This document shows, in pieces, positions 9,750 to 17,981 of a DNA stretch of 59,884 nucleotides. This DNA is from Coleofasciculus chthonoplastes F2-STO-03. Lineage in GTDB: Bacteria; Cyanobacteriota; Cyanobacteriia; Cyanobacteriales; Coleofasciculaceae. The stretch lies in NCBI GenBank assembly GCA_040222015.1, contig JAVJWO010000045.1, forward strand, positions 1 to 59,884, in the 5' to 3' direction. Each line of letters starts with the position of its first letter. Within the stretch, counting starts at the first letter, position 1. Under the pieces are notes generated by a model. That model saw only the letters and a list, made by a program, of their open reading frames with translations, did no database searches and was not told the origin of the DNA. A program made the position numbers and the translations under genes.

Positions 9750-9900
9750 AGGATCTATCCTGTTGGGTAAACGTGCGATCGCGCAACTGATGTGACTTAC
9801 TATTTACCGATATAAACCTGCCCCGATTCCATCCTAGATGTGACAGATTTATTATATTGGTAGGATATCCGAAATCTTGATTAAACCACCCCTTAGATGG

Positions 9901-10575
9901 ATGATGAAATACAATCCCCAGAAACATCATCGCCGTTCGATTCGGCTCAAGGGATATGATTATACCCAAACAGGTGCTTATTTTATCACCGTATGTACAT
10001 GGCAGCGCCAATGTTTATTGGGTGAGATAATCAATGGGGAAATGCAACTGAGTCGCTATGGTGAAGCCGTCAAATTTAATTGGGATATCTTACCCAAACG
10101 TTACGACGGTGTTCGATTAGATGCTTTCATCATTATGCCAAATCATGTACATGGGATTATTTTTTTGCACGATTGGGGTGGAGAGGGGGCGGGTTTAGAT
10201 ACGTTATTCCCAAAAACCGCTACGTTGGTTGTCAAACCCGCCCCTACAGAATCTATCGCGTCGGGAAAATCCAGCCATAAACAATCGAAAATTTACGGAT
10301 TGCCGGAAATTGTTCGCGGCTTCAAAACCTTTTCATCCCGTCGCCTCAATCAACTTCGTTCCCAATCGGGTATCCCTGTATGGCAACGGGGTTATTATGA
10401 ACATATCATCCGCCACGAAGAATCTTTGACCGCTATTCGTGACTATATCCTAAAAAATCCCTGGGATTGGCATAACGATGATTTGCATCCTGAGAATCTC
10501 CATAGCTGGGAGGAATCTTGTCCTCTGGTATTTGAATTTCAGGGCAAATCTCACACTCAGGTTATTGTCAGATAA
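9901..10575 (+). CDS. REP-associated tyrosine transposase (RAYT, Y1/HUH family)
   Basis: RRSIRLKGYDY, YFITVCT, MPNHVHGII (HUH), WQRGYYEHIIR, YILKNP (catalytic Tyr); flanked by GTAG REPs. Confidence 0.92.
   Translation: MMKYNPQKHHRRSIRLKGYDYTQTGAYFITVCTWQRQCLLGEIINGEMQLSRYGEAVKFNWDILPKRYDGVRLDAFIIMPNHVHGIIFLHDWGGEGAGLDTLFPKTATLVVKPAPTESIASGKSSHKQSKIYGLPEIVRGFKTFSSRRLNQLRSQSGIPVWQRGYYEHIIRHEESLTAIRDYILKNPWDWHNDDLHPENLHSWEESCPLVFEFQGKSHTQVIVR
10185..10247 (-). repeat. In-frame REPIN within the RAYT coding sequence
   Basis: Encodes GAGLDTLFPKTATLVVKPAPT just after the HUH motif. Confidence 0.9.
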
Positions 10576-11479: not shown

Positions 11480-11538
11480 GGGGCGGGTTTAGTGATATCA
11501 GGGTGAAAATCTAACGTTAATGGTAAAACCCGCTCCTA
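11480..11538 (-). repeat. REPIN (degenerate GTAGGGGCGGG family)
   Basis: GGGGCGGGTTT...AAAACCCGCTCCTA. Confidence 0.75.
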
Positions 11539-11638
11539 AGCTGTTCGGCATTTAAACCTTAATGTCAATAATGGCGAAATCTTTGTATGTAGTGTGAGCA
11601 TCTTGCTCACTACCCATTTCCAATTTAAATGCATGACA

Positions 11639-11824
11639 ACTCTCTCATCTCCCTCATCTCCCCCAGTTCTCTCATCTCCCTCATCTTCCCCAACTCTCTC
11701 ATATACCTCATCTTCCCTATCTCCAACCTCTCCCCCATCTTCCTCATCTCCCCCCTCTTCCCCATCTCCCCCCTCTCCCCCATCTCCCCCATCTTCCCCA
11801 TCTCCAACCTCTCCACCCCTCATC
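11639..11824. repeat. Pyrimidine-rich degenerate 9-mer tandem array (CTCCCCATC-like)
   Basis: About 20 units such as CTCCCCATC, TTCCCCATC and CTCCCTCAT upstream of clpP. Confidence 0.85.
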
Positions 11825-11879
11825 CGGCGTCAATCGTTACAATCTAGAAGAATATGAGCTTAAGATTACCGTAATTGCC

Positions 11880-13574: not shown

Positions 13575-13674
13575 AAAACTTGACTCAACGCAGTACATGG
13601 ACAGGGTACATTTCCGACAGTTCGCATAGACAGCGACAGTAGTATTAGTACGGTGAGAGCCTGTCTGGACAAAT

Positions 13675-13693: not shown

Positions 13694-13938
13694 TTACCCC
13701 TCAGGACAGTCCTGTGGCTTGGGAAACTCGCTAGGACAAGAATGGGAAGTGTAAGCCACCCTTTAATTAACGGGGATTTAGTACAAATTTACCAATTCTT
13801 TGCGCCTGTTGCACTTGGGCATCACAACAGACGTTTAACGCCATAAATGCATAACTTTTGACGGTTGACTTCCAAGGTAGGGGTACGAGAATCTACAATA
13901 ATGACATACTGTCCCAGTTGACTGTAACTCACCTACTC

Positions 13939-15232
13939 CGGCAAGGAAGCCCCCATTGTAATCTGTGATTCAACGCGGGGAGGAATTGCCAGTCTGTTAA
14001 AGTTTGAATTATACTCATTTTCGTGAGTTTTGGATAAACGTGAAGCAAGTATTGACAATAGTTGTAAGACTTCAACCCACCGAAGAGCAACAAAGGCTGC
14101 TCATGGAAACGGCGGGAAGTTTTGCTGCCGCTTGTAACGCGATAAATGCCACAGTTAACCCAAAGCTAACGAATCGAAATTCAATCCAGGCAGTTTGTTA
14201 CCACGACATCAAAGCCCAATGGGGGCTGACATCAAACCATGTAGTGAGAGCTTGTGCCCGGGTAGCCGCCAATCGCTTAACAGCCAAACACAAAGGCAAA
14301 AAAGTGAACGCTTTTAAGCCAACAAGTTTTGACTGTGATGCCAGAACATTTCAGTTTTTCGAGAAAGACTGGACAGTAAGCCTAAGCACAATTGGGAAGC
14401 GGGTAAGGTGTCTGCTTCGTGCCAGTAACTACCATCGGAACAAATTGACAGGAAAAAAACCAACCAGCGCCCAAGTTTGCCTGCATCGGGACGGGTATTG
14501 GTATGTGCATATACAACTCAAAAGTGAGCCGCCCAAACCGATTAAATCAAACATTGTGATTGGGGTAGACTTGGGACGCAGGGAGATAGCGAAAACCAGT
14601 ACAGATAAAGGATGGGAGGGAAAGCAACTAAACAAGACCCGAGATAAATACACTAGAGTGAGAGCTTCTCTACAAAAGAAAGCAACCCAAGGCACAAGGA
14701 CAACAAGGCGAAGATGCCGGACTGTCTTGAAACGGTTATCGGGGCGCGAGAGAAGATTTCAGAAATGGATAAACCACAATATCAGTAAATCAATCATAGA
14801 AGAAGCCAAGGCATTAAAGTCGGCGGTGGCGATTGAAGACTTAACCGGAATCCGGGAACGAACAAATGAAAAACCCAGGACAAAGAGCGAAAGAAGACGG
14901 TCAAATTCCTGGGCATTCTATCAGTTAAGGATATTCCTAGAGTACAAAGGAATAAAGGAAGGGATTGAGATGATCGCCATACCGCCAGCCTATACCAGCC
15001 AGACCTGTCATTGTTGCTTGCATATTGGACAGAGAACTAACAAGCAGTTTAAATGCACAAACTTGGTGTGTGGATGGCTAGGGGATGCGGACTTTAATGG
15101 AGCAAAAATGATTGAGTTATGGGGCTGTGCAGTAAACCAGCCTGGAGGCTCGGAACTATTGTCCTGTGCAATAGAACCAGGGCTACTAAAAGCCCACACT
15201 ATACCCGGAAGGGTTGGTGTTGGGTAGTTTAC
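13939..15232 (+). mobile_element. IS200/IS605-family element with tnpB only (no tnpA; IS1341-like)
   Basis: Left-end hairpin GGCAAGGAAGCCCCCATTGTAATC..GATTCAACGCGGGGAGGAATTGCC; right end AAAGCCCACACT...GTGTTGGGTAGTTTAC. Exact left boundary is uncertain. Confidence 0.85.
14040..15227 (+). CDS. tnpB: RNA-guided endonuclease TnpB
   Basis: RuvC I GVDLG, RuvC II AIEDL, zinc ribbon CHCC..CTNLVC, RuvC III DADFNG; all three catalytic residues present. GTG start at 14040 preferred. Confidence 0.93.
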   Translation: MKQVLTIVVRLQPTEEQQRLLMETAGSFAAACNAINATVNPKLTNRNSIQAVCYHDIKAQWGLTSNHVVRACARVAANRLTAKHKGKKVNAFKPTSFDCDARTFQFFEKDWTVSLSTIGKRVRCLLRASNYHRNKLTGKKPTSAQVCLHRDGYWYVHIQLKSEPPKPIKSNIVIGVDLGRREIAKTSTDKGWEGKQLNKTRDKYTRVRASLQKKATQGTRTTRRRCRTVLKRLSGRERRFQKWINHNISKSIIEEAKALKSAVAIEDLTGIRERTNEKPRTKSERRRSNSWAFYQLRIFLEYKGIKEGIEMIAIPPAYTSQTCHCCLHIGQRTNKQFKCTNLVCGWLGDADFNGAKMIELWGCAVNQPGGSELLSCAIEPGLLKAHTIPGRVGVG

Positions 15233-15250
15233 GCATCCTTGCCGCAACGC
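15080..15250 (+). ncRNA. Predicted TnpB omega/reRNA (scaffold overlapping the tnpB 3' end; guide from 15233)
   Basis: Inferred from established TnpB biology and the right-end hairpin ending GTAGTTTAC. The 5' boundary is approximate. Confidence 0.55.
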
Positions 15251-15397
15251 GATTAAGCGAGCGAAGATCGGCAATTATCCGTAACAGGTCGTGGGTTAAC
15301 AGGTGTCCGTCAACCTGAAACTGGATAGCTCAAACACTATCCGCTTGATCGCGATCGCGTCAGCAAAAGACGGTTTGATTCTGACAGATCCCATTCT

Positions 15398-15632
15398 GTC
15401 AGGAACCTCTCGGCTTACAGCCGTGGGCTTGAAAAAGCCCATACCTGACGAGCCTAAGACCTACATGGTGTACGTTATGCCCAAGAGTTAAAGTTCCTAC
15501 CTTAGGGTGTGTGCCAGCCCTGAGCTGCTAGAACTTCAGCATTAAACAGGTGTACAGGGTTAAGCCAGTGTGCTGGAGAAAGTACCGAGGCATAACATTG
15601 GCAAGGCAAACGTTACCCCAGTTAAATGGGAG
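15398..15632 (+). ncRNA. HEARO RNA / IscB-type omega-RNA scaffold, orphan (no iscB)
   Basis: GTCAGG..CCTGAC closing stem, CGGCT-TAC-AGCCG hairpin, GGGCTT-GAAA-AAGCCC, AGCCTAAG, TACGTT, AAGAGTTAAAGTTCCTACC, TTAAACAG..GGGTTAAGCCAGTG, AACATTGGC.AGGCAAAC.TTACCC. Paired arms GTTATGCC/GGCATAAC, CTTAGGG/CCCTGAG and TTCAGCA/TGCTGGA. Confidence 0.85.
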
Positions 15633-15704
15633 CGCCCTTCACGTGAGCGTATTGCCACTAGGCAAATTCAAGTAAACGCCGGATCAAAGAAAAAGGATTG
15701 TTGG

Positions 15705-17981
15705 ATGGAATTTTCAATCGCTACATTACTCTCCAATTTGACCGATGACAAATCAGTCGCCCCCAAAGTTTTAGAGAAGAAACTGGGGTGTCAGGACTCC
15801 GAAAGTCTGCAAAAACTCCAGATTGCTCTGGATGTGCTAGAGAAAGTTGGCATTTTGGAAAAAGAACGAGGTCGATATCGACGAGTCTATGAAGAGGATG
15901 TAGTCGAAGCCAAACTGCGCTGCTCCAGTAAAGGATTTTGCTTTGCCATTCAAGATGTTGAAGGCGCTGATGATATTTACATTCAAAAGAATCATCTAAG
16001 TAGCGCTTGGAATGGCGATCGCGTTTTGGTGAAAGTGACCAAAGAAGGGAGTCGTCGCCGTTCTCCAGAAGGACAGGTACGGTTGATTCTCGAGCGAGTG
16101 AATCCCTCGGTACTTGCACGAGTCAGACAGGCTGAAGATGGCAGTTATCACGCTGTCCCTCTTGATGACCGCCTGCTCTTTGAACTGGATTTACGACCCA
16201 ATAGCGCCCCCCTAGAAAAGGCGGTGGAGCATCTGGTTCATGTGCAAGTTATGCGCTATCCCCTGGGACAAAACCCACCCCTGGGCAAAGTGGCTCGCAT
16301 TTTGGGAAGTGATGCGGAAGACGCCGCTGATACAGATATTGTCTGTTGTAAACATGACCTCCGCCGCCAGTTTCCTGAACCTGTACTGCAAGCGATTGAA
16401 GCCTTACCCGACTCCCTCCGCAAAACCGACTTAAAAAATCGCCTGGATCTGCGGAAGCTGCTGACGATGACGATAGAAGACGAGTCAGGCTCCCCAGATA
16501 GCGCCATTGTCGAAAATGCCTTGACCCTAGAAAAAACCAAGACCGGAAATTGGCAGGTGGGCATCCATATCGCCGATGTTGCCCATTGGATACCCCTAGA
16601 TTCACCCCTGGATAGAGAGGCACGAAAGCGAGGAACGGCTGTGTATTTGGGCAATACGGTTCTCCCCCTGCTCCCGGAAAAACTCTTATCTCAGGTGTCT
16701 CTAGTAGCCGGTGAAGATCGTTTAACCCTGTCAGTACTGCTCACGTTAACGGACTCTGGACAACTGGTTGAATTTGAAATTCACAAGAGTGTCATCCAAG
16801 TGGATCACCAACTCAGTTATGAACAGGCACAGGCTCTATTGGGCGGACATGAAGAGAGCGAACCCGAACTCGCACCGATTGTAGACAAACTCAAGGAACT
16901 CTTCTTCAGCTTATCTCCAGCACTCAGAGCCGTGCGACAGCAACGGGGCGCGTTTGAATTGAATGGAACACTGCCCAAAGAAGCCATTGCTCGACCCATT
17001 CCCCACAGTAAAGATGAAGGACGCCAAGGGGCGATCATGGTTTCGGGTTCTATGCCCTTGCGATCGCTCTTAGCAGAATTGATGGTACTGGCAAATCAAG
17101 TGGTAGCGTCCCATTTGCACGCCTTATCCTTGCCAGGAATTTATTGTGTTCATCCAACTCCCGATTTAGAACAACTGGAAGATTTACTCAAGTTAGCGAG
17201 CAATTTGGGACTGGATGTCGAGCAATCATTGGAGGAGGATGTCACGTCCCAAGATTATCAGCGCTTGACCCAACTCTTGGCGAAATCAACAGCGGCTAAA
17301 GTTCTGAATCACTTACTTGAGGGAACCTTAAAACCGATCGCTTATAGTTCTAAACCCGGATTACACTTTGGTTTGGCTTTGGATACCAGCTATTGCCATA
17401 GTATCTCCCCCGTATGGCGCTATGGAGATTTATTTGTCCAACGGGTCTTAGAGTACACCTTTAGCGAAGGACGCGATCGCCGTACCACTCGGTCGAAAGA
17501 TCGGGTCAATCTCCACCACAGTAGCGCCCATGGCAATATTAACTGGAATGTTTTACCCCCTGACACTCAACAGGAGTTAGAAAGTCAATTAAGCACCTTG
17601 GTTCCCCATCTCAATGACCGGGAAAAACTCACCGAAGATGCGGAGATTGATTTAGAGGGCTTGAAAAAAGCCGAGCAAATGAAAGAACGCACAGGTCATG
17701 TCTTCAGTGGTTTGATTACAGGCGTGCAATCCTATGGCTTCTTTGTCGAAATTGAAGACTTGTTGGTGGAAGGATTGGTTCACGTCAGTTCCCTGAAAGA
17801 TGACTGGTACGAATATCGCTCTCGTCATGCTTGTTTAGTCGGTCGGAAAAACCGCACGGCGTATCGATTGGGCGATCATGTCGAAGTTCAAGTCAAGAGC
17901 GTGGATTATTACCGTCAACAAATTGACTTGGTAACCGTTAGTGGTGGTAGTGTGGCAAGTAATGAAGATTTAGAGGATTAA
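15705..17981 (+). CDS. zam: RNase II/R (RNB) family protein, Zam type
   Basis: True start MEFSIATLL at 15705. Cold-shock domains (KGFCFA), RNB domain (VGIHIADV, RGTAVY) and C-terminal S1 (GLITGVQSYGFFVE, EGLVHVSSL). Catalytic Asp cluster is degenerate. Confidence 0.85.
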   Translation: MEFSIATLLSNLTDDKSVAPKVLEKKLGCQDSESLQKLQIALDVLEKVGILEKERGRYRRVYEEDVVEAKLRCSSKGFCFAIQDVEGADDIYIQKNHLSSAWNGDRVLVKVTKEGSRRRSPEGQVRLILERVNPSVLARVRQAEDGSYHAVPLDDRLLFELDLRPNSAPLEKAVEHLVHVQVMRYPLGQNPPLGKVARILGSDAEDAADTDIVCCKHDLRRQFPEPVLQAIEALPDSLRKTDLKNRLDLRKLLTMTIEDESGSPDSAIVENALTLEKTKTGNWQVGIHIADVAHWIPLDSPLDREARKRGTAVYLGNTVLPLLPEKLLSQVSLVAGEDRLTLSVLLTLTDSGQLVEFEIHKSVIQVDHQLSYEQAQALLGGHEESEPELAPIVDKLKELFFSLSPALRAVRQQRGAFELNGTLPKEAIARPIPHSKDEGRQGAIMVSGSMPLRSLLAELMVLANQVVASHLHALSLPGIYCVHPTPDLEQLEDLLKLASNLGLDVEQSLEEDVTSQDYQRLTQLLAKSTAAKVLNHLLEGTLKPIAYSSKPGLHFGLALDTSYCHSISPVWRYGDLFVQRVLEYTFSEGRDRRTTRSKDRVNLHHSSAHGNINWNVLPPDTQQELESQLSTLVPHLNDREKLTEDAEIDLEGLKKAEQMKERTGHVFSGLITGVQSYGFFVEIEDLLVEGLVHVSSLKDDWYEYRSRHACLVGRKNRTAYRLGDHVEVQVKSVDYYRQQIDLVTVSGGSVASNEDLED

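Follow-up and report, generated by a model that had tools for sequence, protein, structure and literature searches.

An orphan HEARO RNA in the zam leader of Coleofasciculus chthonoplastes: a putative stranded element end in a tract nearly identical between species

The DNA analysed here, referred to throughout as the window, is the whole stretch of 59,884 nt from contig JAVJWO010000045.1 of Coleofasciculus chthonoplastes F2-STO-03. Its genome is labelled G000 and was compared with eight congeneric genomes, G001-G008 (nine in all). The window carries zam, a gene for an RNB-family protein whose leader is interrupted by two insertions: a TnpB-only insertion sequence (TnpB IS) and a HEARO RNA (Rfam RF02033, the IscB omegaRNA). 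The features of the locus are listed by position, with a slash at insertion junctions.

13894..13899 (+): TACAAT, a -10-like hexamer conserved in IS-free relatives, where the native zam leader of about 540 nt starts
13929..13932 (+): TCAC, the TAM of the TnpB IS; the empty site of G005 reads TCAC/GCATCC, and a related left end on contig C47 also follows TCAC
13933..15232 (+): TnpB-only IS605-family (IS1341-like) element, 1300 bp; empty-site comparison, Pfam PF07282 and PF01385
13933..15745 (no strand): minimal near-identical tract common to G000, G001, G002, G003, G006 and G007, reaching further to the left in five of these genomes
15233..15249 (+): native leader DNA predicted to serve the TnpB omegaRNA as guide; TCAC plus guide equals the empty zam allele
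15233..15397 (+): 165-bp spacer of native zam leader that separates the two insertions; BLAST matches of 85-89% with IS-free relatives
15379..15404 (+): predicted 10-bp hairpin in which the IscB-type guide folds back on the first bases of the element; pair probabilities 0.97-1.0
15398..15616 (+): HEARO / IscB omegaRNA scaffold; Rfam RF02033 covariance match
15617..15643 (+): element-derived tail, a terminal hairpin and CGCCCTTCACG, ending at the deletion joint; aligns with the G000 copies on C165 and C33, which continue
15644..15704 (+): what remains of the native zam leader at its 3' end, including the ribosome-binding site; aligns with G005, G004 and G008
15705..17981 (+): zam, RNB-family protein; Pfam RNB, OB_RNB, CSD2 and S1

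The name zam, taken from the initial annotation, is consistent with PMC9145284, where loss of zam has a phenotype in Synechococcus. Orthologues were found in 60 of the 61 genomes searched. In IS-free relatives the gene is preceded by a non-coding leader of about 540 nt that can be aligned across 14 family genomes, and TACAAT lies 538-543 nt before the zam ATG in three of these relatives (L038, L040 and L046) and 1812 nt before it in the window. This hexamer is upstream of both insertions and, judging from the sequence, is likely the zam promoter. The consensus fold of the leader family is weak (-15.7 kcal/mol, covariation term +0.39), too weak to claim a structure; it has a helix that pairs onto the AAGGATTGTTGG end of the retained leader, and in IS-free leaders such as L038:2197-2750 (-) it comprises one helix at the 5' end and another at the 3' end that covers the ribosome-binding site. 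A search of eight IS-free leaders against Rfam at E<=1 gave only a HEARO stub in G005 and a chance snoRNA match, and the IS-free leader may be a cis-regulatory RNA not yet described. The G008 leader contains an ORF of 50 codons, which was rejected as a gene because it is frameshifted in G004 (by eye).

The Rfam scan of the whole window gave a single match, HEARO RF02033 at 15398-15616 (+), which reaches 127.1 bits where the gathering score is 83 (E 5.7e-26) and covers the model completely, from 1 to 211. The initial annotation had described a full-length scaffold 165 bp downstream of the TnpB IS, ending about 70 bp before the zam start with no iscB or isrB ORF behind it, and in all of this it was right. 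The distance of 165 bp is exact, because empty-site comparison places the end of the IS at 15232; the zam ATG at 15705 lies 72 nt past the terminal hairpin of the element (15632) and 88 nt past the end of the HEARO model; and neither an iscB/isrB ORF nor any tblastn similarity was found in the 900 nt downstream. A 62-aa ORF at 15303-15491 has no Pfam match and was rejected as a gene, and no terminator was found on the + strand between the TnpB IS and zam.

The same annotation called the HEARO intact, which the sequence comparison bears out for the RNA scaffold and not for the element, which is truncated. Alignment follows sister copies up to about 15643-15644 and then passes into the native leader; the far end of the element, its ATGA and 260-272 nt of host zam leader are lost from the window copy. 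The copy starts with GTCA. At the same site G008 reads ...ATTCTATTTCT and then ATGA, G004 has a variant lacking ATGA (both carry 6 extra nt before the site), and G005 has a 70-nt HEARO stub followed by ATGA and an intact native leader. The G005 stub has its junction in common with the window copy; over 66 nt the two differ by 12%, where the spacer differs by 7%, and the stub is similar to the C33/C216 subfamily. The subterminal (near-end) hairpin of the zam copy carries two substitutions (15408 and 15410) when compared with the G005 stub and with three sister copies. Excision by TnpA needs both subterminal hairpin ends, and the far one is absent.

Cyanobacterial ISC transposons such as ISC1-1_MA have the termini GT..CG at an N/ATGA target (Kapitonov, Makarova, Koonin 2016, PMC4810608). 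Complete orphan HEARO copies in our genomes run GTCA...TTTTCG and then ATGA, and the copy on C215 has a precise empty N/ATGA site in four relatives with no target duplication. The zam copy has the GTCA start of this type, and sister copies end CG/ATGA and have empty sites without duplication; unlike the type, the zam copy has no ORF and no far end, and its ATGA was deleted together with host DNA. By these comparisons, the zam HEARO appears to be the stranded front end of a gene-less ISC-type (IscB-family, IS200/IS605) element, a one-ended, immobilised remnant. The earlier suggestion of a non-autonomous element is thus supported, with the qualification that the remnant is presumably immobile.

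We found 35 HEARO matches in G000, 26 of them above the cut-off, along with 18 RRXRR (IscB/IsrB) matches, 17 Y1 transposase matches and 75 TnpB-domain matches. The genome search for iscB that the initial annotation proposed thus had a positive outcome, which includes four full-length IscBs (427-452 aa); other IscBs, whose omegaRNAs are most like the zam copy (C5 and C95), are broken. Among the 26 strong HEARO matches, the next 900 nt show no iscB similarity in 16, at least 716 nt of similarity in six and fragments in two, and run into contig ends in the remaining two. Across the nine genomes, 59 of the 116 matches examined are orphans (these 116 comprise all 35 from G000 and 81 listed from relatives, namely those over the cut-off in G001-G007, with the copies at zam set aside, plus three weaker matches and just 3 of the 34 in G008). 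The orphan status of the zam HEARO is therefore not unusual. The tandem arrangement of two OMEGA RNAs, earlier presented as unusual, is also a weak argument: from the 35 HEARO and 75 TnpB-domain matches we calculated by hand an expectation of about 0.14 pairs within 200 bp if they are uniformly placed, and about 0.7 if they are confined to non-coding DNA, assumed to be one-fifth of the genome.

Standalone omegaRNAs have been described (PMC10691335). The zam copy resembles these and the PATE-like minimal IS200/IS605 elements (PMC10691335; Meers et al. 10.1101/2023.03.14.532601) in being a protein-free omegaRNA, one of many such copies in a genome that also encodes IscB and Y1 transposase. The known examples, so far as these texts describe them, keep both ends or act in trans, whereas the zam copy is one-ended and predicted to be misfolded. 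As an orphan omegaRNA the zam HEARO is ordinary, a decayed, gene-less ISC derivative; what adds interest is the cross-species tract in which it lies.

In sequence the zam HEARO resembles other IscB omegaRNAs, being a full-length match (127 bits) that sits where an element ends, so that its guide position falls in the 5' flanking DNA; unlike them, it lacks a downstream iscB and its guide is predicted to pair with its first stem. The initial annotation had foreseen such a fold-back, and the predicted hairpin is longer than it stated, 10 bp. In the folding prediction the hairpin abolishes HEARO stem 1 (P = 0.0; without the flank the stem forms at 0.93), and forcing stem 1 is predicted to cost 9-12 kcal/mol relative to the fold-back structure. 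Among the 29 of 35 G000 copies that have a recognisable 5' start, each folded with 20 nt of flank, the zam copy alone has a fold-back probability of 1.0, the next highest being 0.55; these are equilibrium predictions for RNA free of protein and pseudoknots, and binding of IscB could shift the fold. The 5' arm of the hairpin is already present as host sequence in the empty alleles of G004 and G008, so the hairpin is probably a by-product of where an element starting with GTCAG happened to land.

No target for the HEARO guide was found in any of the sets searched. In G000 there was no match to the exact guide (8-16 nt) followed by ATGA, one match to 10 nt of guide with RTGR, which is the chance level, and none to 16 nt with up to three mismatches and RTGR. 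BLAST against 50,697 phage records gave no match, and a pattern scan of IMG/VR viral contigs gave none. Among the eight congeneric zam alleles none offers guide plus ATGA: in G008 the guide sequence is 5 nt off the motif, G004 has no ATGA, and in G005 the site is occupied. The matches in phages and empty alleles for which the initial annotation suggested a search are thus missing. Its idea of a trans-acting guide RNA, directed against a phage, a plasmid or another gene, draws on a scaffold score (127-135 bits) within the range of iscB-linked copies (115-136 bits). The guide is, however, ordinary host leader DNA that already exists in empty alleles, and the lack of a target together with the strong predicted fold-back argues against a working trans guide. 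We regard that role as highly improbable, and the zam HEARO as likely inactive as a guide.

The TnpB IS is identified as an IS605/IS1341 member by its RuvC triad, its zinc finger, the TAM at its left end and a precise empty site, the last also contained in contigs of sequencing run X4, which skip the 1300 nt. The tnpB ORF (14040-15227) encodes 395 aa from a GTG and is open from 14004; D177, E266 and D351, which we take to be the catalytic RuvC residues, are present. Against the predicted guide the empty allele of G005 has one mismatch (position 11), and the mismatches of the G004 and G008 alleles fall at positions 2, 4 and 5, in the seed. Each carrier genome holds one near-identical copy of this IS, always at zam, with none elsewhere in the nine genomes, and no parent copy of more than 83% identity was found away from zam in 52 family genomes. 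The IS is thus not spreading by transposition: it is the locus that moved, not the transposon.

The tnpB gene is full length with its D-E-D triad in G000, G002 and G007, and the IS has suffered independent, different internal deletions in G001, G003 and G006. Two deletions of the G001 type recur in contigs of three independent runs from separate studies (X9, X10 and X13) and are therefore real. In the G001 type (L065) one deletion skips 15188-15432 of the window and removes the first 35 nt of the HEARO; it arose at a 9-nt microhomology and joins the 3' region of the TnpB element to the HEARO body. Three RNA-library runs contain it, as does one further run. The RNA-library data consist of contigs from four runs, and these do not show transcription, because with some contigs of up to 78 kb DNA was probably present. 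In run X6, the contigs that match the window exactly span 13922-15273, ending 41 nt beyond the IS and leaving the spacer and most of zam uncovered (one run, in which absence proves nothing).

Six of the nine genomes (G000, G001, G002, G003, G006 and G007) carry the IS, the spacer and the HEARO in a tract of about 1.8 kb that differs by 0-1.4% among them, whereas the flanking genes differ by 4-14%. Relative to G000, the IS differs at 5 of 1300 positions in G007, 6 of 1300 in G002, 4 of 957 in G001, 4 of 607 in G006 and 0 of 507 in G003; the spacer differs at 1 of 128-164 positions and the HEARO at 2-3 of 184-219. The upstream gene differs at 41-128 of about 910 positions (4.5-14%), and positions 301-900 of zam (codons 101-300) at 25-65 of 600 (4-11%). 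The spacer is 0-0.8% different among carriers and 7-13% different from non-carriers. The HEARO upstream of zam, whose conservation the initial annotation wished to see checked, is near-identical among the carriers, and this reflects recent transfer rather than constraint specific to the RNA, because the near-identity also covers tnpB and the native spacer.

The left crossovers, placed by informative sites, are nested: after 13884 in G000 (at most 48 bp from the IS), at 13825-13843 in G002, and at about 13592-13614 in G001 and G007. The last two genomes group with G000 in clpP (3.7-4.4%) and yet have a left intergenic allele of the G003/G006 type (0.5-2.7% from those, about 10% from G000). As read from the alignments, the nested crossovers and left alleles point to a G003/G006-like donor and to several independent acquisitions. 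Some crossovers could be assembly chimeras, since all six named Coleofasciculus records returned are metagenome-assembled. A G002-like allele was reproduced in independent contigs (X2), and run X4 contains a G005-type IS-free allele (depth 122) alongside an IS-bearing one (depth about 5-7). Two JGI metagenome pattern scans for further zam alleles returned none.

Such a tract might simply be background recombination of the genus, or partly a chimeric assembly, with neither drive nor benefit. Background tracts do exist: 463 kb of aligned sequence contained nine of 416-1133 nt at about 98.8% identity, including one of 1133 nt in G003, and 21 of 1837 windows of 220 nt were at least 99% identical. 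The G004 leader is mosaic too, and many of the relatives are metagenome-assembled. None of the background tracts, however, reached 1.8 kb, or 99.3% over that length. In sampled regions (20 for G003, 10 for G006 and five each for G001 and G007, not whole genomes), 500-nt windows at least 99% identical to G000 numbered 0/356 in G003, 0/180 in G006, 0/41 in G007 and 1/107 in G001. Six genomes carry the zam tract with at least three different left endpoints, and independent contigs reproduce the G001-type (X9, X10 and X13) and G002-like (X2) alleles, which speaks against an artefact. We consider neutral exchange or artefact distinctly unlikely.

The G004 mosaic is a second one at this locus: its zam leader (L062) is IS-free and G008-like (4-8% different, as against 13-18% from G000), lies within G000-like genes and carries the mismatched TnpB seed.

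Alternatively, the allele may owe its spread to a benefit that the host draws from altered zam expression, through a promoter in the IS or through the HEARO acting as a structured UTR in place of the 3' half of the leader, with TnpB as a passenger; the domesticated 5'-UTR regulator of the initial annotation belongs here. About 246 nt of inserted RNA replace a similar length of leader conserved across the family, the 3' part of the HEARO is kept in all six carriers (tnpB is deleted in three of them), the IS contains a promoter-like site (13986-14015; 10/12), and loss of zam has the phenotype mentioned above. The promoter scan, however, gave three sites against 2.7 expected, and retention of the HEARO may reflect its closeness to the ribosome-binding hairpin. 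The carriers' HEAROs differ by only four substitutions, too few to show selection, and one of them, at 15470 in G000, breaks a pair. We found no positive support for domestication; identity is equally high in tnpB and the spacer, and the 5' stem is lost with the first 35 nt in G001. Host benefit thus seems unlikely.

The reading that we prefer, with a probability of about 0.5, is that the zam HEARO is a likely inactive remnant, likely carried along by a 1.8-kb allele whose spread between species was probably driven by homing of the TnpB element next to it. Comparison of alleles suggests that an ISC element inserted at an N/ATGA-type site of the zam leader and that a deletion then removed its far end with 260-272 nt of leader; a TnpB-only IS sits 165 bp upstream at TCAC/GCATCC; and IS, spacer and HEARO are near-identical in six genomes with diverged flanks and differing crossovers. 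When carrier DNA enters an empty-site relative, TnpB, guided by the right flank of the IS, would cut the empty site, and repair would copy the IS and continue through the HEARO into zam, since the 165-bp spacer is short and about 7% diverged. Once no empty target is left, tnpB would decay. The HEARO is predicted to misfold on its own guide and, its far end missing, would not be excised.

Element and co-converted flank are common at one locus far above background identity, as TnpB homing would leave them; any homologous transfer produces this too, and a similar tract would be expected under host benefit or neutral exchange. Against homing, G005, which is closest to G000 and G002 in the left flank, remains IS-free despite a nearly perfect TnpB target. 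Nor did the alleles sampled include a TnpB-only one, which homing resolved within the spacer would produce. Crossovers were not always near the TnpB cut, as the tract extends about 340 bp to the left of the IS in four genomes.

The orphan omegaRNA could instead drive homing, by itself or alongside TnpB, if an IscB provided in trans cut the HEARO-free allele. Standalone omegaRNAs do act in trans when the effector is compatible (PMC10691335), four full-length IscBs are encoded in G000, and other orphan copies lie at the same site in different species. In that respect, 120 HEARO matches (the 116 above plus four zam copies of relatives) fall into 93 sites, 19 with more than one member, and several orphan and iscB-bearing copies common to different species show 0-1% divergence with identical flanks of 60-550 nt. 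G003:C78 and G008:C119 have no differences over 245 positions of HEARO in flanks about 10% different, and G001:C129 and G007:C21 have their first upstream mismatch at 550 nt; other same-site copies differ by 3-8% or are different elements. The sharing of orphan copies fits trans homing, and also homologous transfer or RNA constraint, so it is only a lead. At zam itself the guide is predicted to be sequestered, no sampled allele offers guide plus ATGA, and the IscBs with the most similar omegaRNAs are broken. In G005 the IscB site is occupied by the stub, with no ATGA beside the guide, and the TnpB site is open, which favours TnpB over IscB as the cutter; we consider a role for IscB here improbable.

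Homing endonucleases pass through a life cycle of drive, resistant alleles and later decay of the nuclease. If the spread was TnpB-driven, the zam locus would be a natural chromosomal case of OMEGA homing between species, with co-conversion, target-resistant alleles and nuclease decay, the full life cycle. It would also be a warning that a near-identical orphan omegaRNA across species can mean recent drive and not domestication. The presumably sensitive G005-type and mismatched G004/G008-type alleles are matched substrates for a direct test.

Cutting of empty sites by TnpB and IscB with repair by recombination is established (10.1101/2023.03.14.532601), and TnpB-driven fixation without TnpA has been shown for plasmids (10.1101/2025.02.20.638934; PMC13565253). 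A 2026 review describes cutting of orthologous sites as theoretical beyond one plasmid experiment (PMC13565253). The zam case resembles this 'non-restorative homing', or IS605 plasmid gene drive, in its TnpB-only element, in a TAM and guide that equal the empty orthologous site and in spread at one locus without transposition. It differs from the plasmid case as described in being chromosomal, between species, co-inherited with a 470-bp flank that holds a second element, followed by decay, and deduced from sequence. No chromosomal case of TnpB homing between species was found in the literature searched; related cyanobacterial examples could be contained in article supplements.

Put at its broadest, and tentatively, the zam leader may record a natural chromosomal gene drive across species, in which a TnpB IS homed into at least four recipient lineages, dragging along a dead omegaRNA and a 260-nt leader deletion, and then decayed, alleles with a mismatched seed being immune. 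The gene-less omegaRNA mini-elements of the genus may home in the same way with a borrowed IscB, which would explain their near-zero divergence at shared sites.

Several smaller observations concern the orphan elements and the window. Further same-site orphan pairs with 0-1% divergence and short identical flanks are G001:C86/G004:C18, G002:C30/G003:C27, G000:C216/G002:C45 and G000:C177/G002:C34. The orphan element at G000 C30:62170-62590, before an ndhK-like ORF, is 98% identical in G001, G004, G005 and G007 (flanks 94-96%), absent from G002, G006 and G008, and partial in G003. The end of a gene-less HEARO element often coincides precisely with a host ATG(A) start codon (G000 C215:33427, C30:62366, C177:6622, C33:40884, C71:28046, C5:35164 and others), so that it becomes the translation leader of that gene; the ORFs that follow resemble ndhK, trigger factor and others. 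Downstream of many orphan HEAROs a common module of about 100 nt replaces iscB (G000 C215, C33, C216, C48, C49, C120 and C139). In the window, a tandem low-complexity repeat region lies upstream of clpP (11536-11857), and an ORF at 9877-10575, which we take to resemble a REP-associated tyrosine transposase, is flanked by repeated sequence.
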